A stretch of 64,000 bases of DNA from Monocercomonoides exilis PA203. Taxonomy: Eukaryota; Protista; Preaxostyla. The DNA lies in contig LSRY02000004.1 in assembly GCA_001643675.2 (NCBI GenBank), forward strand, positions 1,550,001 through 1,614,000, given 5' to 3'. This document shows, one piece after another, positions 7,801 through 43,100 of the stretch. The stretch's first letter is position 1. Each line of letters opens with the position of its first letter. Below the pieces are notes generated by a model that saw only the letters and a list, made by a program, of their open reading frames with translations, was not told the DNA's origin and did not search any database. A program made the position numbers and the translations under genes.

Positions 7801-7851
7801 AAAATCATCGGAAGATGTTTTTTGTCTTCCATAGAAATACACGCTGATGCA
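1..7851. repeat. Left arm of giant inverted repeat (continues beyond the window start)
   Basis: Base 1 pairs with 16073. ORFs are mirrored throughout (e.g. 136-336/15738-15938, 5089-5280/10798-10989, 7257-7544/8536-8823). Confidence 0.97.
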
Positions 7852-8225
7852 CAGGTCTAAAAACTTATTTGTTAAAATCAGAATAAAAATATATTTTTTG
7901 TTATATATTTAAATTCATAATGTTATTCTTTTGGAATTTTTTAAAACACCATTTATATGAAATTATCAATTAAGCATTGCTCTTTGAGGTTCTTTGCTTT
8001 AATAAAGGGGAAAGGATTTAATTTTTTTTTTAAATTGTTTTAACTGAAAAAACCAAAAACAGTTTCAATATAATTTAAATATCAAAATTGAGAATAATTG
8101 AAAAGTGTCATCAAATGAAAGATATTCATTCGAACTAGAAAAAAATAATTTGAAATATCAGAAAAGCAAAATCACAAAATCAATTAGCTCATATTTTGTT
8201 TCAAATTTGACTCAAATTCCACACA
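7852..8225. other. Unique AT-rich spacer (loop) of the giant palindrome
   Basis: Arm complementarity decays from ~7810/8270 and ends near 7851/8226. The intervening ~370 bp is non-palindromic and very AT-rich. Confidence 0.85.
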
Positions 8226-8379
8226 TGCATCAACAAGTATATTTCTGTGAAAGACAAAAAATATCTGTTGATGATTTTATTTTTTGAGGCTCCATTATTG
8301 AAAAGAAATGTTGGCAAGTGATATTTTGAATAGCTTTGTTGTGATTCAACACTTTTTTTTGCGAAGCGCTGGGTCTGGC

Positions 8380-10990: not shown

Positions 10991-11270
10991 CTGAGATTAA
11001 GCAAACTGGCAGTCCATTCGATGCCGAACGGCATGTTTCGGAAAAAGGCAAATACAAAATCTGGTGATATGAAAATATATTAAAAAACAAAAGAAGAAGA
11101 ATGCATAATTGCGAAAAGAGGATAAACGGAAATCTTGCAAGAAATAAAATGCCTTCAACATCCTTCGTGCTTCGTGCTCTATCCTTTGCGATAGTTCATG
11201 TTGGTGATGCAAATTCTGTGAGGATATCAGAAGAAGTGCACAACTTTCTGGAATATGTGTATGTATCCAT

Positions 11271-14200
11271 TCAGGGATTGGTAATACTTTGGCTTTCTGG
11301 GCCAGTCCTGTATTGCGTTTGATCTTGAACGGACGGTTCGTCATAATCCACTGCATCAGATATTGTGAGCATCACAGCTCCTGGCGGAAAGAGCTGGATG
11401 AATTCGCGCTTCAGTGCAGACATGGAATATCTCTCCGCTGTTTCACCTGCAATGCATCCTTTTATGATTGCTTTCAGCGTTTGCTTCTTGATTGCTTCCA
11501 AGTTTGGCCTCTCTCCATTCACAATCTTCTGCCCCGCCACCTCGGCCTCATACTCCCCAAATGGGATCTTCAGCGTCAAGCACTCCCACAGCATCATCCC
11601 AATTGAAAAGGCAACAGATTCCTTTGTTGCCCCCATCTTCTTGTTGATCAGCAGCTCGGGTGCTTTCCATCTCAGACACTCTTTTTGTAATCGTCCTCAT
11701 CCTCAAATGCTGAAGAGGGCAGAGAGTCATCATCATCGTCGTCGCTTGCAGATGTCACAACAGTTGATGAAGAGATAGATGATGAATCTGAATCATCAGA
11801 AGAGAAGTCGGAGCGCATGACAACGCAGATGACCATATGTTCTGAGAACAACACAATGTGAGGACTCAGATTGGCAAGTGAAGAGAGAGGATTGTCCATC
11901 TCATCAAATGAGTGGAGAGCAAGGTTGGCCACCCAGAACAGGATTTGGACAGCTGTATATTCTCTCTCCTGAAGCGTGCCAATTGCCATCTCTTTCTTCT
12001 CATTCCTTCCGTGCAGCAGCATGAACAGCGAATCTCTCAGATCCACAATCAGTTTCTCATGAGGAGAAGAACATGCCATTGCATCCGCCAGATTCGACAT
12101 GGATGAAGTGGTTGGGCACAGATCCTCTCTCCGAACAAATGTGGATTCTGTGTCTGAAGTGTCTGTGGTTGAAGTGGATGAAATAGATGGCGATGGCGTT
12201 CTCTTTCTTGTTTCATCATCATCATCAACTTTCTCCAATGCCCATTCTGGGATCTTGTCTGAATCTCTCCCCAAAATATATTCGGTGGAGCCACTCTCAG
12301 ATAGAAGATGCTCTGATGACTCCGAATGTCCCAAGCTTTTCTCATTCACTCTCTTCTTTATCCTCTCTTCATTCTTCTTCTCTGCTTCCCTCTCAGCTCT
12401 TCTCCACTGATCTTCTGGAGACATCTCCATCGTTACCATCTCAAATGCTTTTGGGTCCTTCTTCACTGTGTCTTCCACAATTACCTCCAGCTCTTCTGTT
12501 CTTTTCTTTTGCTTTCTCCAACGGACAATAAAAGCAATTGCTACCACAAGCACAAAAAATAGAAGCACTATCAGAACAATTGTGCTCCATGATAATCCTT
12601 GACTATTTCCTCCTTCTGCTACTTTTTCTTCTCCATTCATCTGAAGCTCACTTCCATTCTTCAAGATAAATGCATTGGTGTGTTTTGGAAACTGCAAATC
12701 GCCAAAAAGAATTCTAATAGAAACCTTGGCTGGCTCGGGAATAACTGGAATTTCCGATATGCCTATTGTGCAATCCACTTCTTCTTCTGAAACAAAGCCA
12801 TCATCACAAAATTGATGGTTCACGATAAAGTCTGTGTCGTCAACAGTCGTGATGATCTGAAAAGATAAGTTGCAAGGAAGAAGAAGTGTTCCTTTCATTA
12901 TAAAACTGATTTCTTCTTCGATGCGTTCACTTTCGACTTTTTCCAAAGTTGGAATGAAAAACGGAGACTGGCGTTCAGATGGCATTCCTAAAAGCTCGCA
13001 TCCTTCATTTAGAATCCATAAAGAAGAGTTATGTAACAATCCGTCTCCTCCCTTTAGACTTTCTATATTCAACACCCCATTTCTAGAGCAAAATATATTA
13101 CGGCGAATCGAAGGATATAACAATATTTGTGGATTATTATTTTCGAATTTCCCATCAATCATCGTAACATTACTACCCAAAACTGTTAGTCCACCTTTGA
13201 TGGAGTTTGAAAAAGAAGAGTCCTTGATTTCTGCCGAACAATTAGCAATACTTATGAGCGATTCATTCCAGTAGCATGCATAGTTTTTGTCTCGTTCATT
13301 GCTATTTGCTTTATTGCGTTCATATCTACCATCAATCAAACAGGAATCCAAATAAAAGTGTTCACATTTTTCATATTTCATAACGTGACCTCCATTTGGC
13401 ATCGAACAATTACTTATTGTACAGTTCTGTACATGTAATTGAGGAACATCGGAACACGAAATAATGTTGCAGTTATTTGAAGTTGAAACGACTATATTTT
13501 TGAGCAATAATGCCGAAAGAGTTATATTTACGATCGGAGTATTTTTTTGGCCTCCAGCGTTTGTTTGATGAATATCGATAACGTTTGCATCGGAGATGTC
13601 TACATCATTAATGCACAATCCCGTTAAAGCTACGTTATTTTCGGATTTCCCAAGCCTGATTACTGATTTCAAACAAGAAAAACTATTAATTTCCAAGAAA
13701 TTAACAAGCAAGAATCCATTTTCAACCTCAATTATATGCGCACTTAACAACAACTTATCGGGGATATTTCTTTGATTTGCGATGTCATGCAACACTGGAG
13801 CAAGGGCACAGTTATTAATATTCAAAAAACCGTTCTCCACAAAAATGAATGAGAAATAAAAATTGGACAAAGAGGAGGTTAACAGAAATCTAATGTCAGA
13901 AATGGAACTTTGCAAATTTGTTGTGATGACATAACTTGAGTTGCCCCTATTTCTAAGATTGACTGTCACATCGCAAATATTCTTTGAAAGAGACATGACA
14001 CTTATCCCATCGAGCGTAATTTCTGCTTCAAGAGACGAAGAAATATCTATTAGCACTTGAGTTAATAAATCATATGTCACATGCTTCAGGCCATAATCGA
14101 TTGTCAAACAAGGATAATTAACCTTTCCACATTGTTTGCTATTATCTCCGCCTGCTTCAAAATTTGATGAAACAACAATACGATCATTCTGGAACATTGT

Positions 14201-17200
14201 AATGAGTTCCATTAAATCAAAAGGTGTTGAAGCATGGTCTGTCTTGTCTATTCCGTAAATGGCATTTGATCTGTGATACTCACTTTCCCGAAGATCCAAT
14301 CTAAACTGGCTTTCATTGATTTGAGAAGAAAGGCTAAAACATTCAATAAAGATATCTCGCCCAATAAACGCGGAATTTCCACTAAATGTTGAGTTTTGGA
14401 AAAGAAAATTCAGATCGCCAACTTCGCCGAATAAAAGATAGGTTCCTCCTCCTTTGCCATATTCTTCACTGCAAAAGCTTTGAATTATCGACGACGACAA
14501 AAATGTGAACGATGAATTTACACCAAGATTTAAAAATGCCATCCCACCTCTTTCGCTATCTCTTGACCTGCATTCTCTGAATGAACAATTTCTGATCTTG
14601 ACAATTCCTCCTTCAGATGAAGATGCGATAATACATGAGCCGTTATCACTTCTGGCAATGCTAGTAAATGAAGAATTTTCCACAGTTATTGTTCCAGCAG
14701 CGAACTCATTGACGCTTGCCACTGATGAGTAATTAACCAGACATATGCACGCTTCAGTTATGTTCACGTTCGATATTGTCATTTCATTAAAGGTGCATTC
14801 GCTATTGTTTGAAACAGCAAAAATATTATTTCCAACGTTACACGACGACACAACAAATTGCGACACTCGGAGGTATCCTCGCTTCATCAACAGAAATGAG
14901 CAATTACTTTCAGTTCCGATTGTTGCTTCTGAAGAAAAGCCGCTCCGCAAAACTTCGATGGTTCCGTTTTCGTTCATAATCACTCCGCCTTTACTGTTTC
15001 CGAAATCCGAAGAAACAAATACAAGCAAATCTCTGATTGTCAAATATCTAGAGTTGAGAAGAAACGGATCGGATTCACCTTCATTTTTTTCGAAAAAACA
15101 ATGTGTGATTTGTTAATTCGGATGTTTGTGAGTATCCTTCCAAAATATAGCCGCTTACGTCATAAGCATCTTGAATTATAGTTTCCTTGGTGATGAGCAA
15201 CTGGAGGAATTGGTTCTCTCCAGTCAAATGCTGCATGCCAGCCCAAGCCGTTTTGCATGGCTCAAATTTACTTCCGCATCTCCTCACATCAAAGCCTGTG
15301 TGTGCCACATATATATTTGAGCTTCTGTACTCAACAACAAACATGAAGAGATCAGCATCTCCAATAATTGAATCGTGCCCAGCAAAGGCATTGCTATCAT
15401 TCATTATTTTGTAATAATCAAATGCAAAAGAATTCAGCGTCACACTCTCATTTAAATTTTTGCTTTCCAAAAAATGTTTTTGCCAATATGTGCCATATTA
15501 CTGCTAACAGTAATTGCATCAATTTTTAGAGGCTGAGAAGCAGCGGACAGAGTGCAGTCCAGATACAAAAATCCTCCTTTTCCTTCATTTCGAGAGCATT
15601 CACAAAACGAAAGATCGCTTGTCTTCAGCGAAACAGCATTATCTTCTGAGAGGCAAACGTCAAGTGCCCCTCCTCTAAGGGACTCTGGTACTTTTAGTTG
15701 CGATAATTGCGCATCTGCAAGATAGAGGTTACCTGAAATGGCAAATGGAGTAAATCTGGCAGTTATCGCCGAAATATTGCAGGAGTTCACTTCAACGGAC
15801 CCTCCAGATGTCCGAATTAGCGCAAACAAGAGTGGATCTGTTCCGTTCTGGATGAAGGAACTATTTGCGATTCTGAGCTGGGTGTCTGATGCAAATATGA
15901 GGCAGTCGACATTTGAAGAAAATGCTGAAGGGATATGAAACGAAATTAATATCACGGCTAGTTGGTGTGTGGCTTCGAGAATTGCATTTCTGCTATTTCC
16001 GATTATTTCAGGCTTGAACAAAATGCTTGCTTTTGAACTTGTTGAAGAAGATATCAAAAAAGAAGAAACATCAACAGGCTCTTGAATATATGTTTCCGTG
16101 CCAATCAATATCTCCTTTTCGAAAGACTGCTCATTTAAATTTGTTGCTCCTCTTTTGAATGAAAAGCACGGATATTCTTCTGCTCCGCATCCGATCATGT
16201 CGTACCCTGTTTTAGATACATAGATGCTGGTTGCCTGCTTTTGATACAAAAACATGGCAAGATCCACAGAATCAGAAAAGTGTGTTCTGTCGCTTCCCTT
16301 GATATCAACAATTTCGATGCCCTCGCTGTTGTAAAACGGAACTTTGATGTTTGAAGGATAAATGCTCTCATTTAAGCTTTTGCAATCAACGAACATATCA
16401 CGCCCCTCATAGCCGTTGTTTTGATTGAAATCGATCTCTTCGAATAAAAAGTCCCGTATGGGTCTTTCAAATGCATGAATACTCCTCCTCCTTTGCCATT
16501 GCCTTCGTTTACGTTGCAGCATGTTATGATAGCCCCATTTATCAAGAATTGGCCATTTTCGCTCAACTTACAGCTAACAGCTCCTCCGTTGCCATTTGCA
16601 GATGAGCATCCACTTAGCATGCAATGTCCAGATATTACATTGCTCCCTGAACCGGAGACTTTATGGAATGAGCCTTTGGCTGTTTTGTATGTTGTAATAT
16701 TTGTATTATTTATCCGTGAGCTCGCTTCGTTAATGCAGACAATCAGGCTATCACTTGAGGTAGACACTGTGTCAACAGTAGATTTGTCGATTACTAGCGA
16801 ACCGCTGTTTATAGATGCCAACCCACAGCTCGACTGAAATAGTAGCTTTGCGACAAGAACATTGCCAAAACTAATGGAACTTCCATTCCCTTTCACTATC
16901 CACACGCAGCAGCGCTTTTCAACGCCATCAGGATCACCAAAGATGCACGAGACAAAATACACTTTTCCAACAGCTGCTTCAATAAATACATCATGCAGGA
17001 GTTGTTCTGCGGTTGTCTGAAGCGTTATATTTAGAGAAGAAACAGACAGATACGTTGCTTGCGAGCCTTTCAGCAATGTAATGCGGCCATTATTCATCAC
17101 TTTAAGAGCCGAGTTGATTTCTTCAATACCACAGATAGTCAAAGGATCGTCTTCGCAATGAATTGGCTGACTCAAATCAGCAGACTTCAATATGCTCAGT

Positions 17201-20200
17201 GTTGTTTTTATACTGCTCATTTGAGAAAATCCAAACGCCAATTCTTGACAAGGATTGTTGCTGTTTCCACATCCAGCATTGTTGCTGCTTTCTTCTCTAT
17301 CGACAAATACAATTTCATCGTTCGACACAAACAAGTATTTTAACATGCTAACATTAATTGAGGGATAGCTTTCGTCGTCGATGACCCACATTGTTTTAAG
17401 ATTAGCATCTCCTGGCTGTGCAGAGCCGGCCCACTTGTTCTTATCGATCATTATCCGAGGTGAAGGACAGATCAAAAAAACGTCAGAGCCCAAGCGTGCC
17501 TGATTTCCCGAGAATGAAATAGCAATCATCGAGTAATTTACTTCCAAATCTTCAAAGCTCAAGTGCAGCCCTCCACCGAAGCCATTTTCTGCATCAACTT
17601 TGCTGTTCGTCACCTTGTTTGAATCAAACAATAATTTCCCTCCTTTTCTCACATTCACTATCATGCTTCCTCCTTTTGAATGGCCATCAATGCATGCATT
17701 TGACGAAAAATTACACCCGCTCACAGTACATGCAGCTTCATCGCAGATGGTTCCTGAGATGGCACCTCCGTTCCCGTTTCTTCTTGCTGCACCTGTAAAA
17801 GATGAATTGGTTGCAGTTAACGACGACGACTCGCCCACAAATAGCATCGAATGATTCATGAAAATTGTTGTTGTGCAGTTTATCAAAGATTCCTCAAGCC
17901 CTATCACTCCTCCATTATTGGCGACAATCAATCCAGAGACTTCATCTGTTTTTGCTCCGTCGATGCTCAAACAAATTAACTCTGCTTCTGCTTCTCTGCC
18001 ACTGACTTTGATGGCAGCTGCCGTTGCAAATTCGATATTCAGAACTGTGAAATTGTTCAGCACAAGTTTTCCATTGGTGCAACAAGCAATCGAGTACGAC
18101 ACTCCTGAGCTGATGGCTTCCGTTATGCAATCAGCCACAGTCAACACGGATCCGCTGCACAATAGCAAGCAATTGCGGCTGATAGTGAAGGCCAAAGGAA
18201 TGCTGAACGATATTCCTGTGAACGAAACATCAACTCTAGCCTCAATTAAGCCACTTCCTTCTCCAAGGCCGTCACTTCGAACAGTTAATTTTTCCGAGTC
18301 ATCCTCAGCATCGATTTCCATCTCTTGTTGTGTAAACGCAATGCGATTGGAAAATTCGAATTCTTTTGCCAACCTCACCTTTCCTTTTGCGCTGCCATAT
18401 CTTGCTGTTCCAGCATAGTTAATGGTTTGACAAGGATAATCTTTATAACCACACATTCTGTAGTCTGTGCCAGTGTTGCTAATGAATGCTGGTGAAGTGA
18501 AATTTCGGAGGAATAGCACCAGCGGGATGGCAAATGCTGTATTGCCTCCTTCAAAGCCGGCTAACTCGCCGAAAGATGAATTACTGCTTTTCTCGAACTC
18601 AAAATTCAGGGATTCGCTGGTAATTGCGGAGGATAAATTTATCGCTTCCACAAACACGCAACTTCCTCCTCTTGTCGCGTTGCATTCAGCAAACGAAATG
18701 CTGCTCATTATAACTCCTGCTGAGCTATCAGTCATGTGCAAATATATTCCGCCGCCTAGTCCTCCGCTGGAACCAATTTCTGTGGATGTGCATTTGGCAA
18801 ACATCGTGGGTGCATTGGTTGCATTACCAATTGTCACTTTTCCTCCGTAATTCCCTCGGACATATATCCCTCCTCCGTGCCCCCCATCTGCTCTGCATGA
18901 CTCAAACGTGCCACCTTCAATTCTTAACCTTTGCTGGTCATTCACTGTGCAACATATGGCCGAGCCATTTTTCATATTATTTGCAAATCCCTTCATTGAT
19001 GTGTTTGAGACATCGATCGCATTTGCGTTATCAGAGAAAATTAAGGTGAAATCTTGACTGGCATGCTGCGACAATAGTGTAGAATCGTCAATGAAAAGAG
19101 AAGCATTCTGCGATGAAAGGCTTATCAGTCCATGTTGTGACGTGGTTTCCACTTCCACCAACGATGCTGATTTCATGTGCACTGAAGCAAAGCCTGTTGC
19201 AACAAGAAATGAAGCATCTCGCAGAGGAATGTTTGCAGCTGCAACTGTGCTGATGGTGAGGGTCCCAGACAATGCTGAGATTAAATTATAAGAAAGAGGG
19301 GGTGATTCATCTTGGGTCTCAAAAATGGAATCTTGTAGCACTAATTCACCTTGTGAGTTTTGGCAGGCAAAAGAGGAATGTGTTTGGAGCTTATCTGGCA
19401 GTCTGAACCTGATAAATGCCATCACAGCAGTTGGGCAATTTTCGCTCATTGTTATCACTCCGGGCTGTGAAGAATTAGATTCGTGAACAATAAACAAGGA
19501 ACATGAGCCAACGCCACTTATGTGAATTCCGTATTGATCAGAAAGCACCAATTCTTCACGCAGCTCGAATGAAACGGAAAGGCTGACATCTTTTGCCTTT
19601 GTCATCTGCTTTGAAAATGAGTAACTCAGAGTCTGGCACGGATAGTCTGTGAAACCGCATGGAGCAACATTCAGGCCCTTTGATGAATCTGCATGAACAG
19701 TGCTGCCAGCATCGCAAATGAAATAGATAAGTGGAATTGCATTCACTCTGTTCTCTCCATCGAAGCCCTGCAAAGAGTTGACTTTTTCTGTGCCTGAACT
19801 GTGTGCAAATGGCATTGTTTCGTTTGTAATGCTTGTGGTTAAGTTTGGTGATTGCACAAATACATCATCTCCGTAATATGCGCTGTTTGGCAGAGATGTA
19901 CTGAACAATGGTGCTAATATCTTGAATGCAATATCTGCTTCGTGCAAGTCTAGATAGGTGCCTCCACCGTAACCAACTGTATCAGAGCTTGGGGCAGAGC
20001 AATTCCCGAATTGACATTCTTCAACAAGCAGTATTGCCCCGACGCCCAAGTCGCATTTCAGTGCGCCTCCTCCACTGTTAGTTTCCTTGACTGAGCAATT
20101 CTCAAATAAGCACTTTTTAATTGTCGAAGCACTCGCTTGCCCATCAACGCATGAACAATGGATACAGCTTCCGTCTCCTTCTGTGCGCTCGATTGCAGAA

Positions 20201-23200
20201 AATGTCACATTTGATGCAAGCAGGATGTTTCCTTCCTCGTTTTCAACTATTGCCGAGTTTTTCATTTCGCATGAAGTCATTGTGTTGTTCTCCATTTCAA
20301 CTGTTCCACCCATGCAAACATAGATGAGCGCATTGCTTTCAGTCCCTCTCAACTCCTTAAACTCTGAGCATTGCACAAATGCTTTTGAATTGCTCCCAGA
20401 GACAATAATAAGGTGCGAAGTGCTAATACTCTCTGATGCAATTTCGAATGATACCAAAAATAGCTTTCCTTTTGCAACCTCTGCAAAAGATGTGCCAATG
20501 CTTCCGCTTTCCATTTTCAACGAGCAATTCGTAACAGTCAGAATACTGTCTGTGCACAGCATCAAGCACTCAATGATGCCTTCGATTGAAGAAGCTGCGA
20601 AAAAGCTCATGTTGGATATGCTTACGAGGTTCTTTGTCTCAATCATACTCACAGCCTTTTGATTTTGGGAGAGATCCACATTTATTTTTCCGCCTCTTTC
20701 AATGCATCTAACGTCCCATTCTCTCTGATCCATGGTGATGTGTTCTGTCCATCGAAAGCTGTCATGAAGTTGGATTTCCCGCTTTTGGGATGGGAACTTT
20801 AAGTTCACAACCCAGCTGATTGTTTCACAAGGATACACAGACGATCCACAACCTTTGAAATCTCTCTTGTTTAAGCCTCCTACGCACCCACATCCGTCCT
20901 CTTGGAGTAAATAAGCTTTTAACGGAACAGGCTGTGCGCGGAAGTCAGCCTCAAACCCCATAAGATCGTCGTCATTCATTTCATCCATATTGAAGTCAAA
21001 TGTGGTGTTCTTCACAACAGCACTGAGCTCGACTGCATCGTAAAACACACATTTCCCTTTCCAGCCATCGCAACCAGCAAATGATACTTTGGATAGGCAC
21101 GCATCACAGATATATTCTTTTGTGTGGATGAAAATCCCTCCACCTTTTCCTTTGGATGCCTCGTCTTTAGGAACTGTGCATGCTGAAAAAGTGGCAAATC
21201 CTGCTAAACCTTCGACTCGGATTCTGCCTCCACTTTGGTGGACTATTGAGATACCTCCGCCGTTGCCTTTCGAGCACTCGCACCCAACTAGCGTTGTGTT
21301 GTTTGATACAAACGAGTTTTGCGCACCAACAGAGATATTGATCCCAGCACCGCTGTCACGTTCCGACTTCATGCTTGAGAGAGAGCAATTCGCACAAGTC
21401 ATGCTCGAATGATCGCAGAGTATTGCAGGACAGCCAGAAAACGAAAAGTTAGCCATATTGGTGTTGCAAATTGTTGCTACGCCTCCATTTCTGCAGCAAA
21501 GCAGGGCAGCCTGAAAAAGTACTAAAGCATCTGCTGTCGATCGTTTCACACTGATGGAATCAAGAGTCATTGTCCCTGTTGAGCTCAAGAAAAACAGAAC
21601 AGAACTACCACTTGATGGAGCGTGCACAATAGTGAAATTGGCAGCTGTAAGTGAACCTGTTGAAACGGCGAACAACGGATGAGCGCTTGGAAGATGCGCA
21701 GAGCTAAGCATCACTTCTTCTCGCCCGATTCCCGTTATCTGTCTGGTGCTTGTCCCAACATTGATTGTGTCTGGCTCGCTGTCAAAAGTTGAGTTCAACA
21801 GAATAATTGAAGATGAATTGTAGCGGAGTAGCATGGCAAAAGAATATGCTATGGTCCTGCACGGATTGCCTTCAGATACCCCACAGCTTGCTGATCTGTT
21901 GTTCCCTTTGGTTCCATCAGTATAAATGCCTGCATGCGTCTCGAGCCATTCAGAGTGTTGGCGCAGCTGATCTGTGTATATGACAAGCCTTGTCGAAGAT
22001 TTTGTCTGTGATGCGCATCCGCATAATGGATTTGCTTGAAGGCGGAAATAACCATCACCAAAATAGATATCATCCCCATTTGGTGACACATTATTGACAA
22101 AAAGGCAATAAAACAAAAGTGTTGCATTTTCAGGCGTCAATTGATGCACATTGTAATACAATCCTCCTCCATATTGCCGTGAATTGCATTTTTGATACAA
22201 ACATTCACGAAGAACCGGATATTCGTTGATCGGCTCATATATCGACAGTCCACCACCATATGTGCAAATTGAGTCACAACCATTGAACGAATAGTTGAAT
22301 AACATTGCACCAAATGAGAGTGAATCGTTATCCAAGGTCACATGTTTTCCTGCGTATCTCCAACTCATTCCTCCACCAACACCTGTTGTTGCATTGCATT
22401 TACAATTACTAATGTTAAAAAACGAAATAGCACTTGCTATTTGACCACAGAAAATTCCACCTCCGTAACAACTTGTTGAGTTTTCAATTCGAGAATTTTT
22501 AATAACTTGTTTTTTTATATTAACAGTGTACAGGGTCCCACCTTTGTCAAAAGAAAAACAATTTTCAAAAACACAGCAATCAATAACAATTGAACTTGTT
22601 AACTGATTTTCAAAAGAAATTGCACCACCAGTATAATCAGAACCAGAGGAATGCCACTCACAATCTTTGAATAAGTGATCTCCTTCTTTTATTTTGATGT
22701 GATCCATTTGTTTATTGTTTGTGTAATTGTCATTGGCAGAGCGGAAGCAAGAAATTAAGGTGTTGTTGCATGAAATGAGCGAATGGGAAGGATCATTGAT
22801 GGATTGGGCAATGCCCCCATCAAACACATTGTCAACCGTGTGAAAATAACAGCTGCATAAGATGGAAGATTGTTTTTCTGGATTATGTTGCGATTGATAT
22901 TTGGAGAAGTTGGCTGTAATGTTTGCAAATGAAGAGTCCCACACATGAACAAATGATAGCAATGGTGCAGACAAAAAGGGACAAGAAAGCATTGGAAATG
23001 ATGAAAAGGAAGAATGCGACAGTTCGAGTGAAGAGCATGATGTGGAGTCAAACGATGGAAGAACACTGGCCAATGGAGGAATTTCCATCTTTTTGTTGAT
23101 GGGAGTTAAACTAATGTTTCTAATGGAAAGGCTGCTTTCTAGAAGTGACAAGTCTGGCGCATTTGTATTTTCTTGGAGGAATAAATTACAGTGCAAAAGA

Positions 23201-23496
23201 AAACTGTGTGAAAGCTTTAAAGAAAGAGCACAGTTCTGGCCAATGTGCTGAAAAGTTATTTCAGAAAAGTTCACCGAAACATTTTGCCCAACAATAAACG
23301 TGGCCAGGCTTGTGCCTTTGTGCACCAGAATGCTTGTGAAACAGTGATTTGAAGAAACTTTTTTGCAATTGTGATTGCATTTTATTTCTGAGCTGTGACA
23401 AACAAATAACTCTCTCTGATCCACATCATTTTTTTCGGGGATATCCGAGGCACAAATTGCTCCATAAAGAACAAGAAGCAAAATGAAAGAAAACAT
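11271..23496 (-). CDS. Full-length copy of giant receptor-like membrane protein (~4,070 aa reconstructed): signal peptide, 8 Cys/beta-helix modules, TM, pseudokinase; broken in this sequence by 4 frameshifts
   Basis: ORFs 16372-23496, 15452-16522, 15081-15470, 11672-15043 and 11271-11636 join end to end. N-terminus MFSFILLLVLYGAICASD looks like a signal peptide. Frameshifts at ~15470, ~15090 and ~11685 are homopolymer contractions relative to the intact left copy; the one at ~16454 is fixed by adding one G to a G run. No introns are needed. Confidence 0.85.
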
Positions 23497-24282
23497 GAAA
23501 GAAATAATGCTTTTGACTGTTTTTTGTGCAATTCCTGCCCCTCTTCAATAAATCGATCAGTGAACAGATTCTTTATAATGGATTAATTGATAAATGGAAA
23601 CTATTTTTAAATTTAGGGAACAAATAATTTCAATGGTTCGAAAATATATGAAATGAAATAGTGTTCATATAAAATTTTTCAAGCATGCATGACAAAATAT
23701 TCTCATCGTATGTGTAAAATATTCTGAAATTTCAATTAAATTCGAGAAGAATATGATGCATCTGATAGTTTGGATTGCACTATAAAACATTCAATAATGA
23801 AGAAGAAGAAATCAATTTGGAAATGAGAATATTTAATGTTTGATGCATGAATGATTCGTGTAATGCGACTCAAACATAACAGATATTTCTTTTCGTAAGA
23901 CTTCTTAATAATATTTTGGTTAATAATGCTTTTTCATAAAATTATTTCTTTCTAAATTTTTTTTTCTATAATATTATTCAATATATTACACTTTTTTATT
24001 TTTTATCAAATTTTGTTTCTTCAAATTTTCATCGAAGAAACAATTAAAATCTGTGTAATCCTTTTAAAAAAGAAGCAAATGTTTTATTCAAAAAAAAAAT
24101 ATCTTTCATATCTTCTTCAAGAGATATGGAATATCAGCTATAGATCCATCTCGATTAGGTCAATCAATATTATTGATTTTTGAATATCTGATGGTTGTTA
24201 TCATCTTGTATTATAAGTTGGAAAACGAAATGAAAAGAAGATAGAGATCGAGAGTTATTGCTGACACTCTTAGGGGTTTATC

Positions 24283-24546
24283 ATGATTAGATATTCAGTG
24301 ATGTTCTATAAAAATGGAGTTATTGATAGGTGTAATCGATATGTATCTATAGCTGATATACCATATCTCCAAGGAGGAGAATTAGCTAAAAGATTAACTA
24401 GAAGATTTGTTAAAGGTGTTCAAGTTGGTAAATTAATGGTGAAATTGTGTGTTATCATTGATGAAATACATGAGTTGTATGTTGAACGTGTTACCGTTGA
24501 TGGAAATAACAGGTTAAAGAGTGTCAAAGATGGTAAATTTGTGTGA
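24283..24546 (+). CDS. 87-aa hypothetical protein in left TIR
   Basis: ATG-to-TGA ORF. A diverged partial paralogue (IRYS...SIADIPYL) lies on the opposite strand at ~24121-24200. Confidence 0.4.
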   Translation: MIRYSVMFYKNGVIDRCNRYVSIADIPYLQGGELAKRLTRRFVKGVQVGKLMVKLCVIIDEIHELYVERVTVDGNNRLKSVKDGKFV

Positions 24547-24613
24547 CAATTAGTGTTATCGTTTGTGAAATCGCAAATAAAAATAATTGATTAAGTTTTT
24601 TGTTTTATAGTAA

Positions 24614-24857
24614 ATGGGTCGGAAGAAGATATACACAACTGTGGAAGAAGCGAAAGCTGCTCAACAGAAACAAATTAAACGGTTTCAAAAAAAAATGAAA
24701 GGAAGAAACTAAGTATTACAATGAACATGTATCTGAAAAACAGAAGAAGTTGATTAAGATCTTGAGGAGAAAGCTTATCGAAAGTGATGAGCTGTTAGAT
24801 GAGTTGATGGAAAAAGTTAATGGTTGTTTGCCTGCACAGGTTAAGCTGATCAGGTGA
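24614..24857 (+). pseudogene. Small basic/helical protein (~81 aa) with one frameshift, in left TIR
   Basis: MGRKKIYTTVEEAKAAQQKQIKRFQKKM, then after removing one A at ~24699, KEETKYYNEHVSEKQKKLIKILRRKLIESDELLDELMEKVNGCLPAQVKLIR*. Preceded by an AT-rich gap. Not in the ORF track. Confidence 0.5.
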
Positions 24858-25421
24858 TGTGGGAGATGCTGTGGCGTGGAAATATTGAGTTAACTCTCCG
24901 TGCTGGAAGTGTGGACAGGTGGACAGGACTGGACAGGATAAATTTCATTCTCAAAAATAGGTGGGCAAACGGGCAAAGTGAGCAAAGTGGGCAAAATACA
25001 ATTAATGTGAAAATTGATGAAATGTAACAGACTACACACGTTCGTTGTATCATCAGTTGAATCAAACAGTAGTCACGATGACGTTATAGTTGATTGCCAA
25101 CATCAATATTTTTACTCGGAAAAAGTGAAAATCGGTAGGCCGGATACCAAATTGTGGCAATATCGAGATGCTGGGGGAAGGGAAATATTGGGTAAAATCT
25201 CCGTGCTGGAAGCGTAGTCCAATAGCCCGGTTGTCCGGATCTTTTTATTTCATCTGAAAAGAGCTGCCAACATGCCATTTCTGCCAACATGGATGTTTTC
25301 CCCTTAATTTGGCATGATTATGAGGGTTTTTTTTATTTTCGATTGTTTCATCATTTTGCTCCATTGCCACACGAAATAGTTGGTGGCATTCGTTCGTTGT
25401 ATCGTCAGTGGTTAACATCAG

Positions 25422-27832
25422 TTATATCGTTGATGGTGTTAATATTGTGTTGTTGATATATAAATGACTTCTTAAAAACGAATATGTTTTGTTAATCAAG
25501 ACAGAACAGTCAATGTAATATTCATCTTCCCGTCGTTTGAGGAGCTGTTCATACTCTGACTTAAGTTCATAACACCACACTTGATTTCCTCTTCCACTTA
25601 TTTGTTTTCTCTCACATCTGTCTATAATTTCCAATTGGAATGAGTGATCGTTCTTGTATTCAGCTGGTCTGAAACATGGTGCATCAGAACATCCCCACCC
25701 TTCTTTGAGTTTATTTCAATGCTCCTGTCAGAACACATCGATGATAGAGAGTGATGCTGCAAGGATGTCTTCCTTTGCCTCCGTTGTTGGAATAGCCCTT
25801 GTGTTGAATTCAGAAAGATCTTTACTGAGGAAATAACAGAGAAGTTGTTCATAGAATTCATTATCGAAAGAGCTCGTGAAATCCTTGAAGAATGTGAGAT
25901 TGATCTTATAATTTGAGTCACAATCACAAACAACATATCTCCTGTCACCAATCTCAACCTTGACTGGGAATGAGTGATTTGTCACAAATATGAAATTGGC
26001 TTCGTTCTCAGCTGTTCTTCTTGGCTGATTCTTTTCATTGATTCTGATTGTCGAATCAGTGATTATACTCTTCAAGGCATCGAAGTCAGCTGTTCGATCA
26101 TCTCCAACATTCTTCAATTCGTTAAGTGCAATGAGCATTTTCCCTTCAACGATGGAATTGAACTGTCCTGTCAGTTCTGCAATCTCTGTGACATTCGGAC
26201 ATGAATATCCTTCCAACAGTTCAGCAAAAACATTTGCCCAGACATTCTTTCCAATACCTTGTAAACCTTTGAGAACAAGTGATGTTTCTGATTTTTTACC
26301 AGGATTTTGTAAAATTGACACAATCCAACAGAGGATGTATTGATAGAGTTTTTCGTTGTTGTTGGTGATAACTTCTCGTGTGAAATCGAGGAACGGTTTG
26401 ATGCTTTCGTCATTTTGTTCGTTTACCATTTGATATTTGAACCCATGGAACAGAGAGAATATTCGAGAGTTATCTGAGAAGAACTTTACCCTATCAATCG
26501 ATAGAACATGTGAGTATTGTTCGAAAGCTATCTCAATTGTGAGAGTCTTTTTGTCATCATGCCAGCGTTTTATTGTTTTGAACAGTTCGTTCATTGCTGA
26601 TTCTGTCTTGAATGTAATTGAATAACAAGAAGAGTGAATGTCAAATTTTTTTTTACAATGAATTCCATCCTTGCTTCAACAAACCTCAGAACTTTTGTGA
26701 GATCTTCAGCGACTTCAGACAGTGAGGAGTATTGTTTTCGACAAGCTTTCTCCCTGATTCAAAAGAACGAGAACGATGAGTTGAGATCAATTTCATGAAC
26801 AGTAATCTCTCGTGGAGGTTATTCCTTTTGCTCATTCTCTTTTCTGAGGAGTGAAATGATCACATCGTTGTTATATGTTGGATTCCATCTCTTGACAATC
26901 TTTTGAAGAACAAATGGATGTGACTTGTTGTCTCTGTTCCTGTTTCGTTTCTCTTCGTAGTGAATGATTGCATTTGCTGTTAGAGCAGCTGTCTCTCTGA
27001 TTTGATAGAAAAGAAAATCTATTGATTCGTTGTCGAAACCATCAATGTTGACAAGAGAGATGAGAGCTGCAAATAACTGGAAAAGAGATAACTCAGAATC
27101 AAGTGAAAGAGAACCTGTATCGTTATGTATTTCAACATCTTTCAGTCCATCAACAAGAACAAGAGCGACAGTTGAAGATATATCAACGATTCCATCTTGT
27201 GTGAGAAGATTGTGTGGTTCAGCTGCCATTATCGCTGATGTATTCTCTGTTTTGAGGTCAATACCGAAGATGTCAAGAACACTCTCGAGTGATGAAAGAT
27301 CTCTGAGCTCTCTGTAGTTGTTGAGGGGAATGTATTTGGTGATGATTCTCTTGCCGGCTTTCATCTCTCTGTATGAAGAGTTAGCTTAAACAACAAGCCT
27401 CTGTTTTCCATCTCCTATATATGAAAAAATGTCGATATCGTCCTCTGGACTCGTGAACACTTTGGTTTGTGATGAACATTTGAGGGAATGACCGCACAGC
27501 TTAAAATAAATGCGAAGACAACCATGAGCTGTTTGAACAAGTCCGACATTTCGGGGGAGTTTCTCGAGAATGGAATTCCTGATGGTTTTCGTTTGTTCAG
27601 CTTGAAGTGATTTGTTAATGCCAACATCAACGACACAAAGATCCTCACATTTGCTGAAATTGACAGCTGTTCCAGTGTGTCGTTGGCCCTGCTTTTCGTC
27701 AGAATATTTCTTGCAGTCGAACAAATCAAAAAGGTGATCTTTCATTCTTTCTCCCAGCGTTTGCTGTTCTGTTGAAATTGAATCAACTTATTATTGGATT
27801 ACATTGTCAGAGTCTGCTTGGGGGTTTGTCAT
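25422..27832 (-). pseudogene. AEP-superfamily primase-polymerase fused to D5-like superfamily-3 helicase (~800 codons), inactivated
   Basis: One frame from ATG 27832 with 7 stops (TAA 27791, 27788, 27386, 26819; TGA 26759, 25728, 25716) and one shift in a 9-nt run (26646-26654). AEP motifs LCVVDVG, QTAHGCLRIY and DIDIF. Helicase Walker A GLQGIGKN (26244-26267), Walker B LIALNE, motif C FIFVTNH, and DRRY. Confidence 0.88.
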
Positions 27833-28299
27833 TTTGTGAAAATCAAAAAATCATATAATTTTTGAATCAGATTTATTTTGAAAACTTCAATTTGCAGGGA
27901 AGATGATGTTGAGGTTAATGTCGAACTTTGACGGGGAACAGTTAATATTCGCAACAAACAAAAAGCGAGCAGAACAAAAATCGGTTTGGTAAACGGTGAC
28001 ACAAATGGTTTCTTGTGTTGTGCTTCGTGTGAAGACAATTACGTGTTTTGAAACGATTTTCACCTGTTATTCACAACTTTTGCATCATTTTTAATGCAAA
28101 AAAAAACGATATTTCACTGAAAGTCATATCGGAACAAGCTGTAACAAGTAACTTGTCTCATCAAAAATTTCGAATTTCTTCCTGAAATAATGGCAACGGA
28201 GGCAAAGTCTCTTGAGCAACGTAGTTGCAAACTGATATGTTCCACTGACGATATAACTGATGTGCGCCATTTAATACATACCATCTACGATACAACGTA

Positions 28300-29548
28300 G
28301 CAATGGAGCAAAATGATGAAACAATCGAAAATAAAAAAAACCCTCATAATCATGCCAAATTAAGGGGAAAACATCCATGTTGGCAGAAATGGCATGTTGG
28401 CAGCTCTTTTCAGATGAAATAAAAAGATCCGGACAACCGGGCTATTGGACTACGCTTCCAGCACGGAGATTTTACCCAATATTTCCCTTCCCCCAGCATC
28501 TCGATATTGCCACAATTTGGTATCCGGCCTACCGATTTTCACTTTTTCCGAGTAAAAATATTGATGTTGGCAATCAACTATAACGTCATCGTGACTACTG
28601 TTTGATTCAACTGATGATACAACGAACGTGTGTAGTCTGTTACATTTCATCAATTTTCACATTAATTGTATTTTGCCCACTTTGCTCACTTTGCCCGTTT
28701 GCCCACCTATTTTTGAGAATGAAATTTATCCTGTCCAGTCCTGTCCACCTGTCCACACTTCCAGCACGGAGAGTTAACTCAATATTTCCACGCCACAGCA
28801 TCTCCCACATCACCTGATCAGCTTAACCTGTGCAGGCAAACAACCATTAACTTTTTCCATCAACTCATCTAACAGCTCATCACTTTCGATAAGCTTTCTC
28901 CTCAAGATCTTAATCAACTTCTTCTGTTTTTCAGATACATGTTCATTGTAATACTTAGTTTCTTCCTTTCATTTTTTTTTGAAACCGTTTAATTTGTTTC
29001 TGTTGAGCAGCTTTCGCTTCTTCCACAGTTGTGTATATCTTCTTCCGACCCATTTACTATAAAACAAAAAACTTAATCAATTATTTTTATTTGCGATTTC
29101 ACAAACGATAACACTAATTGTCACACAAATTTACCATCTTTGACACTCTTTAACCTGTTATTTCCATCAACGGTAACACGTTCAACATACAACTCATGTA
29201 TTTCATCAATGATAACACACAATTTCACCATTAATTTACCAACTTGAACACCTTTAACAAATCTTCTAGTTAATCTTTTAGCTAATTCTCCTCCTTGGAG
29301 ATATGGTATATCAGCTATAGATACATATCGATTACACCTATCAATAACTCCATTTTTATAGAACATCACTGAATATCTAATCATGATAAACCCCTAAGAG
29401 TGTCAGCAATAACTCTCGATCTCTATCTTCTTTTCATTTCGTTTTCCAACTTATAATACAAGATGATAACAACCATCAGATATTCAAAAATCAATAATAT
29501 TGATTGACCTAATCGAGATGGATCTATAGCTGATATTCCATATCTCTT
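28300..29548 (-). repeat. Right terminal inverted repeat (1,249 bp), carrying mirror copies of the two small ORFs (29121-29384 and ~28810-29053)
   Basis: Reverse complement of 24119-25367. Confidence 0.97.
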
Positions 29549-30124
29549 AGTCATATTTCTGGTCCCTCTTTGGAATCAACACAAATACATATACGATAAC
29601 AATATCAAGGAATAGCTTCCATTTTTGTGAAATTTCATGAATATGTGCAGAAAATTGATAAAAATATGTGATTTTATAACTTGGAAATTTAACATTTGCA
29701 ACTTTTCAAAAAAAAAAAAAAAAAACCATGTTTTTGAAATAAATACGACATTATTTTTTCTGAATTGTGTGATTATTTTTGACAAAATTGTTTTTGTGCA
29801 GAAAATTTCGTTATGAAAGATTTCTTTAAATATTTCTATAGTTAAAAAAAATAATAATAAAAAATAAAAATAAAATAAAAAATAATAAAAATGAAAAGTG
29901 AAAAAAAAAATACACATATTCATTTTGACAACGCTCATCCACACATTGTTTTTACGGAAAAGAACTAATCTGATAAGAGTCAAATGAATATTTTTCCTCA
30001 TCTACTTTATTGTTCGAACGTTGAGCCATTTGTTTTTATGATTTTTGGCTATATTTTGCAGGTTTTTGAAGGGGAAAAAATATTTTTAGTGATAAATAAT
30101 AAATTGATATTTTATACACGTATG

Positions 30125-30367
30125 ATATGAAATTTCCATAAGGCTGATTTTTTTTGAAATCATTCCTTCGTTCGAGTCTTGATCTATATTTTTATCTCAA
30201 TGGGATTTTAGAAAAATAGAGCTTAAACTGAAAATTTATATTGTTCATAATGTTATTATTAAAAAACCAAAATTATTACAAAAATCCCATTGAGATGGAA
30301 ATTTTGATCAAAACTCGAAAGAAAGAATGATTTCAAAAAGGATCAACCATATTGAAAATATTCATAT
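30125..30367. mobile_element. MITE-like imperfect hairpin (~85-bp arms, ~70-bp spacer)
   Basis: 30125-30209 (…tttgaaatcattccttcgttcgagtcttgatc…atctcaatgggatttt) is the imperfect reverse complement of 30281-30367 (aaaatcccattgagat…gatcaaaactcgaaagaaagaatgatttcaaaaa…). The inverted repeat is certain; mobility is inferred. Confidence 0.55.
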
Positions 30368-30471
30368 TTCAGAATATTCTGAATGGGCATTTGATTTAGC
30401 TAATCAAAAAAAATTAAATCCGAACGATGTTTTTTTATTTAACTAATTTTGTTCCTCTCATATGAACATTT

Positions 30472-30598
<127 letters not shown>

Positions 30599-31078
30599 GT
30601 TTAAAAATTTATTTATTTATTTTTCTTCACTTTATTTAATTTTTCAAAATTCTTTTTGTTGGGTTCGGCTTCAGAATTTTCATCGTAATGTTCCAGCCCT
30701 CCTGAAAATAAGTCAGATTTTGAGAATATTTCAATTTCATCTATTCTTAAAACACTTTGTTAATAAGAAACACCATTGGTTTATGTATTGATATATGAGA
30801 TTTGATCAAAAAAATTAATTCTTTCTTTTCAATAGATGAACAAATATGGGTCAAAATTTTTTCATTTGTGAAAAAAACAACTATTTATTCCAAACTTTTT
30901 CTCCATCCTTATTATTATTGTTTTTTCATTCCCATGTCAAAAAAATACAGAAAAATTCATAAATTGAGAAAAATATTTGTTCGAGTAGAATGGAACAATA
31001 TTCATAAAGCAAAATATTTCATCCCATATTTATTATTTGATACATAACTTTTCCAAAATGAAAATCATCAATTTTTCT

Positions 31079-40169: not shown

Positions 40170-43100
40170 TTAAACTGAAGGGGATCTTAATTGAGGAAGT
40201 CCATAATAACACAATCCAATGCAACTCCTTCCTGCAATAAGAGAAGGATCTTCTTCTCCATTTCCTTCGGCATCATTCAACTTCTGTTCAGTCGCACTCA
40301 GCCTCACTGAAGATTGAAGAATGCTTTCGCTCACACTCAATCCTTTTGGAAGAGACTCAGCAATGTCACTCACAGCGCTAATTGCAGCATCGCTTGTTGA
40401 ACCAAATAGATTGACACCAACGCCAACAACTCCACATAGAGAAAGAATTGCTGCTGTAAGACCACATCCTCCGCTGCCAAATGCCTTTAATCCAGTCCAT
40501 CCAGTTAAAGAGTCTTCTTCTTCTGTCCCGTTAGCATTACTTTCACCTCCTGTTTTTTCCTCGCTTTTTGCGTTGCGAGCACCATTTTCTCTTTCTCTGC
40601 TGCTTCGCTTGTGCAAAGTGCTTCTTGTTTCAGCGCCTCCCACACACATCACAAACTGCGGACCAAAGAAACCTGCTGAAAGAAGCGTGGGAAGAGGAAG
40701 ATAATCGAACAGCTGGCCTGTCAGTGCAAAAGCGACATTTGGAGATGATCTGCTCAGCTCCAACATGGCAGATGGTGTAATTGGAGGAAGAACCGTTCGA
40801 GTGGAAGCAGTCGCCGAATTAGCTACCGATGATGCAGAAGTTGATGGAGTTGGTGCAGCTTTAGACGAAGAAGGCTCAGAAGGAATTGATTGCGAAGAAG
40901 CAGAAGTTGCTCGTCTGCTTCTAGCACTTGAGGTCGGACGCCTTTTTGGTGAAGAAGCACGACGAAGAGGAGACTTTGAGGGACTTCTGGAAACAGAAGC
41001 AGCTTGTTCTTCAACAGAAACAGATTGCGCTGATGGATCCGACAATGACGATGCAGGAATCAAATGCGGCGGAAGAGCTCCAAGCATCTTTTGAATGGTG
41101 TATGGAGTGATTATTCGCACGGAATCTTTCTTTGCTCGCCCTGAATCAACAACTCCAAAGACCATATCCTGCAGAACAACTCTTCTTCTAAGCCTCTTCT
41201 CCATAATAAGGGTATTAGCTCCTTCAGCTTCAAAGATGCTTCGCTTATTCAGAACATACATTTGTCTTGGATTTCGTCGTTTGGACACAAGTTCCTCTCC
41301 TTCTTCATCTTCGATGCTTATACCCTTTCCATCAAGCAATCCCATTCGGCTTCTCCATCCCTTTTCTGCTTCTTCGCCATTCAAACCGCTTCCGCTTGGA
41401 GATGCATCTGTACCACCTTTCCCTTTCTTTTCCTCTTTCTTTGTACCTTCTTCATTTGTTGTTTTTGTTCCTTTTGTTCTCTCTTTGCTTCGTCCTCGTT
41501 CTTTTTCTTTCTCCAAATCTCTTGTGCTTTCAAATTCATTCGCACTCGACATTCCATCCAAATTGCTGTTCTGCCTTCTGAAAAGAGAAGACACAAGCAA
41601 CTTTCTCTCTTCGCCACCTCCTTCTCCTCGCACAATATTTCCTCCTTCACCAAATCTGCTGCTTCCCATGTCTTCATCATGAGGGTCAACAATAACTGTA
41701 AGTTTTGGTCGAATCGATTGCAAATCGGAAGATGTCGAAGAAGATTGTGCAGCAGCAACAGCAGATGCAGAAATAAGTGAATGAATGCCTGATGACCACA
41801 AGCGATGCCTGTGATATCCAAGATGATAAGAAAATTCACGGCAGATGCAGCTGATTGAAGAAACCCAGCGAGCTTCATTTACAACCGGAGAAGCATATGA
41901 GACCGAAGATTTTGATCGTGAGGTTAATTGTGTGCGACTCAATGATCGAGATGTGAGAGATTCGATTGAAGGAGATGAAGAAAGCGATGAAGAAGACGGA
42001 ACAGCTTTCTTCACCAAAACAGGATTTAGTGCAGACAACGATTCAAACGGTAGTGAATGGAATATCAGATCTGCTGATATCACAACTGGACGAGGATAAT
42101 CAGGAGAAATCAGTCCAGATATGCATTTCCCTACGAGATCTCCAATCAATCCATCCATTTTCCTGAGGAGATTGTTGTATGTTCTCATCATTTCTCGTTC
42201 TTTTGACATTTGCTTTCGGATCTCTCTGACTGACGGCATCACAGATCCTCCATCAATCTCTTCGCCCATCATCAGATTTCCTCTTGTCTCGCTTCTTCCT
42301 CTCTTCTCGTCACTGCTTCTCTCATTCTTCAGTACTTCTTCATGTAACGCCACCAAAAGCATCTGTCGTTCGCGGTTCCACTCGCCAAACTCCTTTTTCA
42401 GCATCATTAGCTCTCTCAGTGGAATGCATTTCTTTTTGATGCGTACATCGAGGAAAATGTGGTTCAGAGGCAGTGAAGGAGGAGGAAGTGCGACTGGCAA
42501 TGGAAGTTTCTCAAACACAGCTTGTGCAGGCGGCTTCGGCTTTGTTTGCATAATTTCTGCTAATTCCTCGTCCATTTGTTCGCTTTCTTCTCCAGTAAGA
42601 GAATTGTCAGATGACAAAGCTGTAATTGACTTTGATTTTTCTTTTGAAAGACGTGAGGATGTTGTTGGCCGCTCTTTTCCTTTTGTTTTTGAAAGGTCTC
42701 TCTTTGATTCATCTGTATCTTCTTTCAGTGATTTTTGAGATGCTTTCAGTTTTGGTGTGTTTGAAGCAGATCCGATGCGCTCTTTCCTTTCTGAACTCTT
42801 TCCACGCTTTTTCGGAGTTTTACTTAAATCTCCATCTGCATCATCTGCTTTCATCTGGTCATCGTCAGCAGAAGCAATGTGCTTCAGCTGAGGTGGCGGA
42901 GGAGGTGGAGTGAATGGCAAGGGAGAAGCAACTGAGGCGCAAATCAGTTGGCTTTCCTTCTCATCAAAGGAAAGAAGAAGAAGGATTGTTTGTTGCGGAT
43001 AGACCGACATTATGTCTGTGATTGAGATATTCTTCATCGATAGTAGCATCTCAGCAAACGATGTTCCCAATGGATTGGATTCATTCATAAGCAATGCATT

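Follow-up and report, generated by a model that had tools for sequence, protein, structure and literature searches.

Which kind of mobile element leaves a single primase-helicase gene between two perfect inverted repeats, each more than a kilobase long, in the chromosome of an oxymonad? The question is raised by positions 24119-29548 of a 64,000-nucleotide stretch of Monocercomonoides exilis PA203 DNA (assembly GCA_001643675.2, contig LSRY02000004.1, positions 1,550,001 to 1,614,000 of the forward strand), called the window below and used for all coordinates. An earlier note on this sequence had offered two readings of the element, a minimal replicon captured in the chromosome or a derivative of a larger virus-like element mobilised in trans. 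The second is favoured, and the minimal replicon less so, because of the clade to which the gene belongs, the (AG)3-like tip, and six Maverick-type capsid matches in M. exilis. On balance, the element is a dead member of a family that probably descends, in miniature and non-autonomous form, from metamonad Mavericks of the TvMav3 type, and it was probably inserted in trans.

Architecture, ends and gene content

The two arms of the element (24119-25367 and 28300-29548) are exact reverse complements over 1,249 bp, with the first mismatch at position 1250, and a repeat search stretches the inverted match to 1,271 nt at 99%. No other match to the arm sequence is present within the 64-kb window. The exact match bears out the dimensions first proposed, 5,430 bp with 46% in two terminal inverted repeats (TIRs) of 1,249 bp, and the core between the arms measures 2.9 kb. 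The tip can be refined using read contigs from four runs (X1-X4) of one sample; the assembly may have been built from that sample, and the contigs do not count as evidence independent of it. No RNA data set was among those listed as containing this sequence, which has no bearing on expression either way. Among the contigs listed from the four runs, those with foreign flanks stop about equally at 24119 (19 contigs) and 24120 (20 contigs), which places the tip of the family most likely at 24120/29547, with arms of 1,248 bp and an element of 5,428 bp. The features of the element, including its small open reading frames (ORFs), are:

24120..25367, plus strand: left TIR arm, 1,248 bp, starting 5'-AGAGAT; the exact match reaches one base further, to 24119
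28300..29547, minus strand: right TIR arm, identical to the left arm
24121..24369: tip fold-back, in which 24121-24169 pairs with 24321-24369 (49 nt, 86%); mirrored at 29298-29546
24283..24546, plus strand: putative small ORF1, 87 codons, open
29121..29384, minus strand: mirror copy of ORF1
24614..24857, plus strand: putative small basic ORF2, with a frameshift near the A-run at about 24690
28810..29053, minus strand: mirror copy of ORF2, placed by symmetry
24863..25215, plus strand: inner-arm repeat region, a candidate origin
25473..27832, minus strand: Prim-Pol plus superfamily 3 (SF3; NrS-1/D5-like) helicase pseudogene, intronless, filling 2.4 kb of the 2.9-kb core
27833..28299, no strand: spacer upstream of the gene, mostly (from about 27930) rare in the family
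24114..24119, plus strand: left 6-bp flank, TCTTCA
29548..29553, plus strand: right 6-bp flank, TAGTCA

Alignment of the core gene with a nearly whole M. exilis paralog covers 27832 to 25473, takes up two frames and gives 83% identity, across seven in-frame stops (TAA at 27793, 27790, 27388 and 26821; TGA at 26761, 25730 and 25718) and one frameshift near 26650. Both the second aspartate of the primase DxD motif (D71) and the histidine of GGxH (H107) are altered. These residues are nearly invariant among 49 relatives, in which D69 and D71 occur in every row, H107 in 46 and D134 in 45; the family has an SF3 helicase joined to a Prim-Pol domain that bears the DxD, H and D motifs, a set which this copy no longer has complete. 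The helicase Walker A, Walker B and RR motifs are still present. Because of the stops, the frameshift and the alteration of both primase motifs, the gene is a pseudogene that cannot encode a working primase, and this copy of the element cannot replicate itself. An alternative genetic code (table 6), prompted by the four TAA codons, was considered and dropped: it leaves three TGA codons and the frameshift unexplained, other copies read through the stops that are covered, and the host genes of the window are open in the standard code.

The earlier description of the core gene as an intronless fusion of an archaeo-eukaryotic primase with an SF3 helicase was right, pseudogene though it is, and predicted folds make it more exact. 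The model of the nearly whole paralog (predicted local distance difference test, pLDDT, 84) has its best match in the NrS-1 helicase region (Foldseek E 3e-19; Z 26.9, root-mean-square deviation 3.9 over 365 residues), and SaPI5, African swine fever virus PrimPol and poxvirus D5 score below it (Z 15-19). When folded alone, the N-terminal part matches pRN1 ORF904 and the NrS-1 Prim-Pol (E 1e-4 to 9e-4; five matches at E up to 0.001); it also scores 0.97 in Atlas to Prim-Pol clusters, with PF09250 on 23% of members. As modeled, the protein type is a Prim-Pol fused to an NrS-1-type SF3 helicase (DUF5906/VapE). Prim-Pol-helicase proteins of this type can prime and extend DNA unaided. With the same domain order and folds, the element protein likely works like the one-protein replication modules of pRN1 (ORF904), NrS-1 (polymerase) and SaPI5 (primase-helicase), although these belong to a prokaryotic plasmid, phage and satellite, respectively, and share 12-20% identity with it. 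The three replicons are circular or recombinase-integrated, rather than TIR-bounded in a eukaryote.

The absence of an integrase and of PolB, as stated in the earlier note, was upheld by query. Eight Maverick-type queries had no match anywhere in the window: four integrases, three packaging ATPases, and, by tblastn, a PolB-like ORF from L069, a metagenome contig carrying a relative of the gene. Pfam detected no rve domain in the element's ORFs, and no trace of a transposase was seen in them. With the core filled by the 2.4-kb gene there is no room for a capsid gene, a statement that comes from coding space alone, as no capsid search was made. Eukaryotic linear plasmids are defined by a protein-primed PolB, which was not found in the element, and the proposals of a new class of self-replicating element or an integrated linear plasmid gain no direct support from a copy that cannot replicate itself. 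Of the two small ORFs proposed for each arm, the 87-codon ORF1 is open while ORF2 is split by its frameshift, and neither is shown to be a gene; at the mirror place of ORF2 (28972), read contigs of other copies carry an indel. Searches for relatives of either ORF yielded nothing in Pfam, only E 0.02-0.08 for one piece in PHROGs, and at best 0.76 in Atlas, and the exact ORF1 sequence is absent from the protein collection searched. A tblastn match to these ORFs in the contig L061 (E 0.005, 44 residues) was taken as chance.

The arms are themselves structured. The first 250 bases, which include the tip fold-back, form a predicted single-strand DNA hairpin with z = -5.6, and none of 200 shuffled sequences was as stable. 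Toward the inner end, a 51-nt direct repeat (24863-24912 and 25165-25215, 82%) occurs together with two clusters of 8-10-nt tandem motifs at 24911-24990, which hold 11 overlapping 6-mer matches, a count reached by 0 of 200 shuffles (shuffle mean 0.17). Judged from these patterns, the hairpin and the tandem motifs could have a role in replication or integration. Rfam gave 0 matches in 23500-31000. A candidate older, decayed arm extension beyond 25367 was rejected as not significant (score 38 versus a shuffle maximum of 41). At the refined tip the 6-bp flanks agree at four of six positions, where the chance of at least four is 0.09 and 24 tip/length pairs were examined; the likelihood ratio of a decayed target-site duplication versus chance is 0.4-3.4. 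No 7-10-bp duplication was found at any tip offset tried, the best being 5/8. A host gene of 2,374 codons lies next to the element on the minus strand (16372-23496); its start is 620 bp away, with the element on the upstream side, which puts the insertion in or near the promoter region of that gene.

Copies elsewhere in the genome and the identity of the arms

At the tip, summed read depth leaps from about 35-80 on the flanks to thousands, and over the gene it is roughly 14-78 times that of unique pieces; as a rough figure, the family is present in tens of copies. At least 12, 11, 9 and 7 contigs (X1 to X4, respectively) run on past the tip into flanks unlike the window and unlike each other, and the loose ends at the tip show an agreement of 0.52-0.57 in all four runs. 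The closest proteins to the core gene are from M. exilis (83-84% identical), and seven named paralogs lie on contigs of at least six different lengths, most of these paralogs being shortened or gapped and one nearly whole (804 aa). The listed pieces of other copies are 10-17% diverged, and the stop at 27388 was seen at single-copy depth (34.8, X1).

Joints between arm and gene in other copies are known on the 5' side of the gene, and no contig spans a whole copy. One joint (27925 to 28652) was present in all four runs with up to 55 letters on the short side, a second (27934 to 28763) was present in one contig, and a loose end at 27950 resembles the arm near 28660. Because the likeness threshold for the joint contigs was 85, these contigs come from diverged copies. 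Most of the spacer of the present copy has few counterparts in the family, with a summed X1 depth of 122 where the gene has about 2,800, because other copies join the upstream end of the gene straight to the arm. Counting this copy, at least three kinds of arm length occur on the 5' side of the gene, about 785, 896 and 1,248 bp, and since arms elsewhere are about 900 or 785 bp there, the 1,248-bp arm reads as one that has taken in inner sequence. A sharp tip shared at many flanks, diverged copies, and arm-to-gene joints elsewhere identify a dispersed multi-copy family; the one-off local inverted duplication that the earlier note had named as its refutation does not apply.

The copy itself presents a puzzle, as its arms are without a difference over 1,248 bp while its gene, with private stops, is 10-17% from the other copies. 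In the listed pieces of other copies, median depths in X1 were 75 for arm, 30 for gene and 36 for unique pieces, and in X2 were 155, 103 and 84, a hint that each old copy carries its own arm sequence twice, with arm pieces at double and gene pieces at single depth. The arms are probably kept identical in place by gene conversion, in which case their identity says nothing of recent activity; either this is so, or a copy that was already dead has been moved not long ago and left no clean duplication behind. It is extremely improbable that the perfect arms are an artefact of assembly or polishing. It is true that another near-perfect palindrome (7.85-kb arms, 99.7%) is present in the window, that no contig spans the element, and that none reaches 31 letters past a junction of this copy in both directions. 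At three junctions, however, unique contigs that match this copy letter for letter (23541-24148, 25338-25758 and 28052-28329) extend 29-30 letters into the arm before they stop, as expected of a 31-letter graph meeting a true repeat. Private arm letters were also seen at about double depth at several X1 sites (84, 81 and 95 versus 35), though not at every site.

Maverick relatives and the probable origin of the family

A search of longer proteins returned 99 matches, mostly of 730-890 aa on metagenome contigs, plus proteins of Trichomonas vaginalis and Streblomastix strix (42% and 38% identity, respectively). The T. vaginalis protein belongs to a 198-member cluster named 'Prim-pol domain family', which we infer to be the 'primase' of TvMav3. 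TvMav3 elements are 15-26 kb long with TIRs of 100-130 bp, and the primase, their fourth gene, is present in 91.8% of 1,705 copies along with DUF4108, DUF4106, ATPase, PolB and integrase (PMC12289875 supplement). Relatives with visible neighbours adjoin Maverick genes. The neighbours of the L069 gene, which is 40% identical across 670 aligned residues, are DUF4108, an A32-type ATPase and an ORF of 837 aa bearing PolB-like motifs; in L002 an A32 ATPase is upstream of the helicase gene; and in L009 (table 6) an rve integrase is downstream of the Prim-Pol-helicase. In L001 an HNH gene is the sole neighbour in view, and L036 gave no usable neighbourhood. DUF4106 had no match in the genome to which L069 belongs, where the control had none either. 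No long inverted repeat was found in the relatives' contigs, which are short. Among viral contigs, the 30 loci found were all distant (22-32%), and none had the ATPase or the T. vaginalis protein.

A tree was built by a quick method from the helicase part only, rooted at the midpoint, with 107 rows left after removal of those with fewer than 200 aligned residues. It groups the M. exilis rows in a single clade (SH-aLRT, the Shimodaira-Hasegawa-like approximate likelihood-ratio test, 100) within the set of relatives, shallow and mostly unresolved inside, with this copy on the longest branch (0.12). As reconstructed, the tree puts M. exilis inside the clade and names no donor. Six Maverick-type capsid matches, which mark candidate helpers, are listed for M. 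exilis (PMC10120064 Tables S1 and S4), and the same capsid cluster column has 820 for Streblomastix and more than 1,000 for T. vaginalis G3, with Histomonas and Tritrichomonas also represented (PMC10120064). Prim-Pol-SF3 fusions often replace PolB in these groups, and metamonad elements are still ungrouped (10.64898/2026.06.19.733378).

L069:1-9384 is a 9.4-kb piece of a TvMav3-like Maverick (ATPase, DUF4108, a PolB-like ORF with QIDS in motif C, and Prim-Pol-helicase) filed in a bacterial metagenome-assembled genome of sheep-colon origin, a bin into which it probably strayed as a contaminant from a protist virus; its tandem 9-mers were dropped as a parallel to the candidate origin, as they were read as SQS repeats in a possible small ORF. 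L009:12-4079 carries a table-6 Prim-Pol-helicase followed directly by an rve integrase closest to Hexamita inflata, a diplomonad-type Maverick module; four of the ten integrase matches checked, from 164, are H. inflata proteins. In L001:14-2039 and L002:1150-2876 the helicase has no Prim-Pol domain (499 aa in L002), a 33-nt piece of the helicase 5' part recurs in the downstream HNH gene, and 20-nt tandem motifs lie upstream. On metagenome contigs the ATPase of L069 and L002 has 594 relatives or more, and the primase-helicase about 90 of full length, a large, mostly unclassified pool of metamonad-type Mavericks.

Compared to known systems, the element is closest in gene to TvMav3 and the 'Metamonada' group of Maverick-Polinton and Polinton-like virus (PLV) elements, with which it shares a same-clade Prim-Pol plus SF3 helicase, TIRs, and many chromosomal copies in a gut metamonad (PMC12289875, PMC10120064). 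Unlike TvMav3, it is 5.4 kb long, has arms of about 800-1,250 bp, is without PolB, integrase, ATPase and DUF4108, and carries a gene that is dead in this copy. The AGAGAT tip matches five of six positions of the Maverick tip AGAGAG, (AG)3, a motif documented for vertebrate elements (PMC8097293). The TIRs of vertebrate Mavericks (46-1,447 bp) include the arm length of the element, and most of their loci are decayed too, but they have eight core genes, PolB rather than a Prim-Pol-helicase, and perfect 6-bp duplications in intact copies (PMC8097293). Autonomous Mavericks/Polintons are 10-28 kb with at least ten genes, as opposed to 5,428 bp and one large gene here. The 'end modules' of PLVs (entomopoxvirus-associated PLVs and Gezel-14T) also place a primase-helicase beside a TIR with repeats nearby, but include a tyrosine recombinase or nuclease and are part of capsid-bearing genomes, whereas the module of the element stands alone between two copies of the end (PMC11296320 section 9). 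Transpovirons and Tetrahymena Tlr1 are likewise small or capsid-less members of the Polinton network built around a helicase, but theirs is SF1 rather than SF3, and transpovirons have 6-8 genes and go with mimiviruses (PMC3671162). Galileo and other foldback elements have long TIRs that lengthen by recruiting inner sequence, but are P-superfamily transposase elements without a primase-helicase (PMC3573991). The element thus stands outside autonomous Mavericks, transpovirons and PolB plasmids, with a gene from a known virus group and ends that probably come from it as well.

A miniature Maverick derivative could have arisen as follows. In the parent virus the Prim-Pol-helicase would have been placed close to one of the ends; everything else would have disappeared, and a second end would have been made anew as a copy of the surviving one, through a template switch or arm-to-arm recombination, which would account for the ORF-bearing arms and for the three or more arm lengths on the 5' side of the gene. 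The short form may then have spread to tens of sites through the rve integrase of a helper recognising AG-type tips, after which the copies would have decayed independently, with the arms of each, 2.9 kb apart, kept alike by gene conversion in place. Several points weigh against this account. The copy has no clean target-site duplication (the flanks match at 4/6), and no full-size partner with these ends turned up, no genome-wide search having been made. No helper ATPase named M. exilis was among the best 120 of 594 matches, and no helper integrase assigned to M. exilis was among the ten matches checked of 164 using the L009 query. Just three close relatives have informative neighbours (L002, L009 and L069), and the PolB label of L069 comes from motifs judged by eye, the ORF having no family match in Pfam, PHROGs, NCBIfam or the PDB. 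With TIRs of 100-130 bp and a primase that is fourth rather than terminal in TvMav3, the layout of the parent is assumed. All read evidence is from one sample, summed depths do not translate into numbers of copies, and each set behind the twofold depth is small, with 4-8 listed pieces that were tool-chosen among thousands. Six capsid matches against tens of compact copies would also fit a successful satellite.

Such a satellite, or minimal replicon, is the main competitor, though an unlikely one. Here the Prim-Pol-helicase of the compact form would have replicated it, starting at an origin within the arm, and a Maverick or other virus would have served integration and packaging alone; borrowing integrase and capsid and outnumbering its helper in chromosomes, it would be a eukaryotic counterpart of SaPI-type phage satellites. 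The sole gene kept is the one predicted from its folds to prime, extend and unwind, the tip hairpin and short tandem motifs are far above shuffles, one paralog is nearly whole at 804 aa, and compact joints recur in other copies. Panhandle-type replication yields identical arms, so that these would be expected as well. However, this copy is dead in both primase motifs and most annotated paralogs are shortened or gapped, the pieces listed give no sign of a young burst (private changes at about single-copy depth, 10-17% divergence), and none of the close relatives whose surroundings can be seen is a lone gene flanked by repeats, although those contigs are short. It is improbable that there is no compact family at all, and that full-size Mavericks inserted long ago, of which this and a few others became shorter where they stood, through deletions and recombination between arms. 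The copies are indeed old and independently decayed, their arm-to-gene joints differ, capsid matches exist, and the imperfect 6-bp flank match would suit an old integrase insertion; yet at least three joint types put the arm about 100-470 bp from the gene start, gene copies appear several-fold above capsid matches, and a single short ancestor is a simpler assumption than repeated independent loss that each time spared the same gene.

Capture of a Maverick Prim-Pol-helicase by a non-Maverick long-TIR transposon, like a Mutator-like element (MULE) or a foldback element and moved by an unrelated transposase, is distinctly improbable. The long, internally repetitive arms of variable length do resemble those of Galileo/foldback elements, outer-arm depth exceeds twice gene depth in some bins, a hint of arm-bearing elements without the gene, and a perfect 6-bp duplication is missing; set against these are the AG-type tip, the lack of a transposase trace in the element, and the lack of a 7-10-bp duplication at the offsets tried. 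The miniature Maverick derivative is preferred over these accounts.

Surrounding sequence and meaning of the finding

Three other features of the window were noted. At 186-16073 (centre about 7843-8236) the window has a palindrome whose arms, about 7.85 kb each, are 99.7% identical and hold two versions of a receptor-type tyrosine kinase gene (578-4807, plus an inverted, frameshifted copy). It may be a genuine inverted duplication whose arms undergo conversion, or else a fold-back made in assembly. At 30133-30357, 585 bp from the right tip, lies a 225-bp element with 82-nt inverted arms (83%) and high summed depth; nine contigs have unlike flanks at 30151, and it is probably a miniature transposon in its own right, present in multiple copies. 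The minus strand holds an open frame of 5,717 codons at 40170-57323.

No description of this element family was found in the literature searched, a body that leaves most subscription papers and Repbase outside it. The available parts of the M. exilis genome papers (PMC8767320, PMC6759080) do not mention Mavericks, and that of PMC6759080 contains nothing on transposons or viral repeats; unclassified repeat makes up 35% of the genome (PMC8767320). In C. elegans, TIR-bearing remnants of Polintons are known (10.1101/2024.01.15.575659), and in a survey of the anole lizard an amplified non-autonomous Maverick family was apparently absent from that genome (PMC3014272). Amplified miniature Maverick derivatives seem to be little described. 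As a caution, perfect long TIRs here surround a gene with seven stops, which makes TIR identity unusable for dating such insertions. Were the element a satellite, Mavericks would have parasites of their own, a single Prim-Pol-helicase would suffice for a eukaryotic mobile element, and among the self-synthesising integrative DNA elements in the Polinton network this one would be the smallest. If the preferred reading of a miniature Maverick derivative is true, Maverick ends can be moved in trans, a helper was active in an oxymonad, and part of the unclassified repeat of M. exilis would gain a name.

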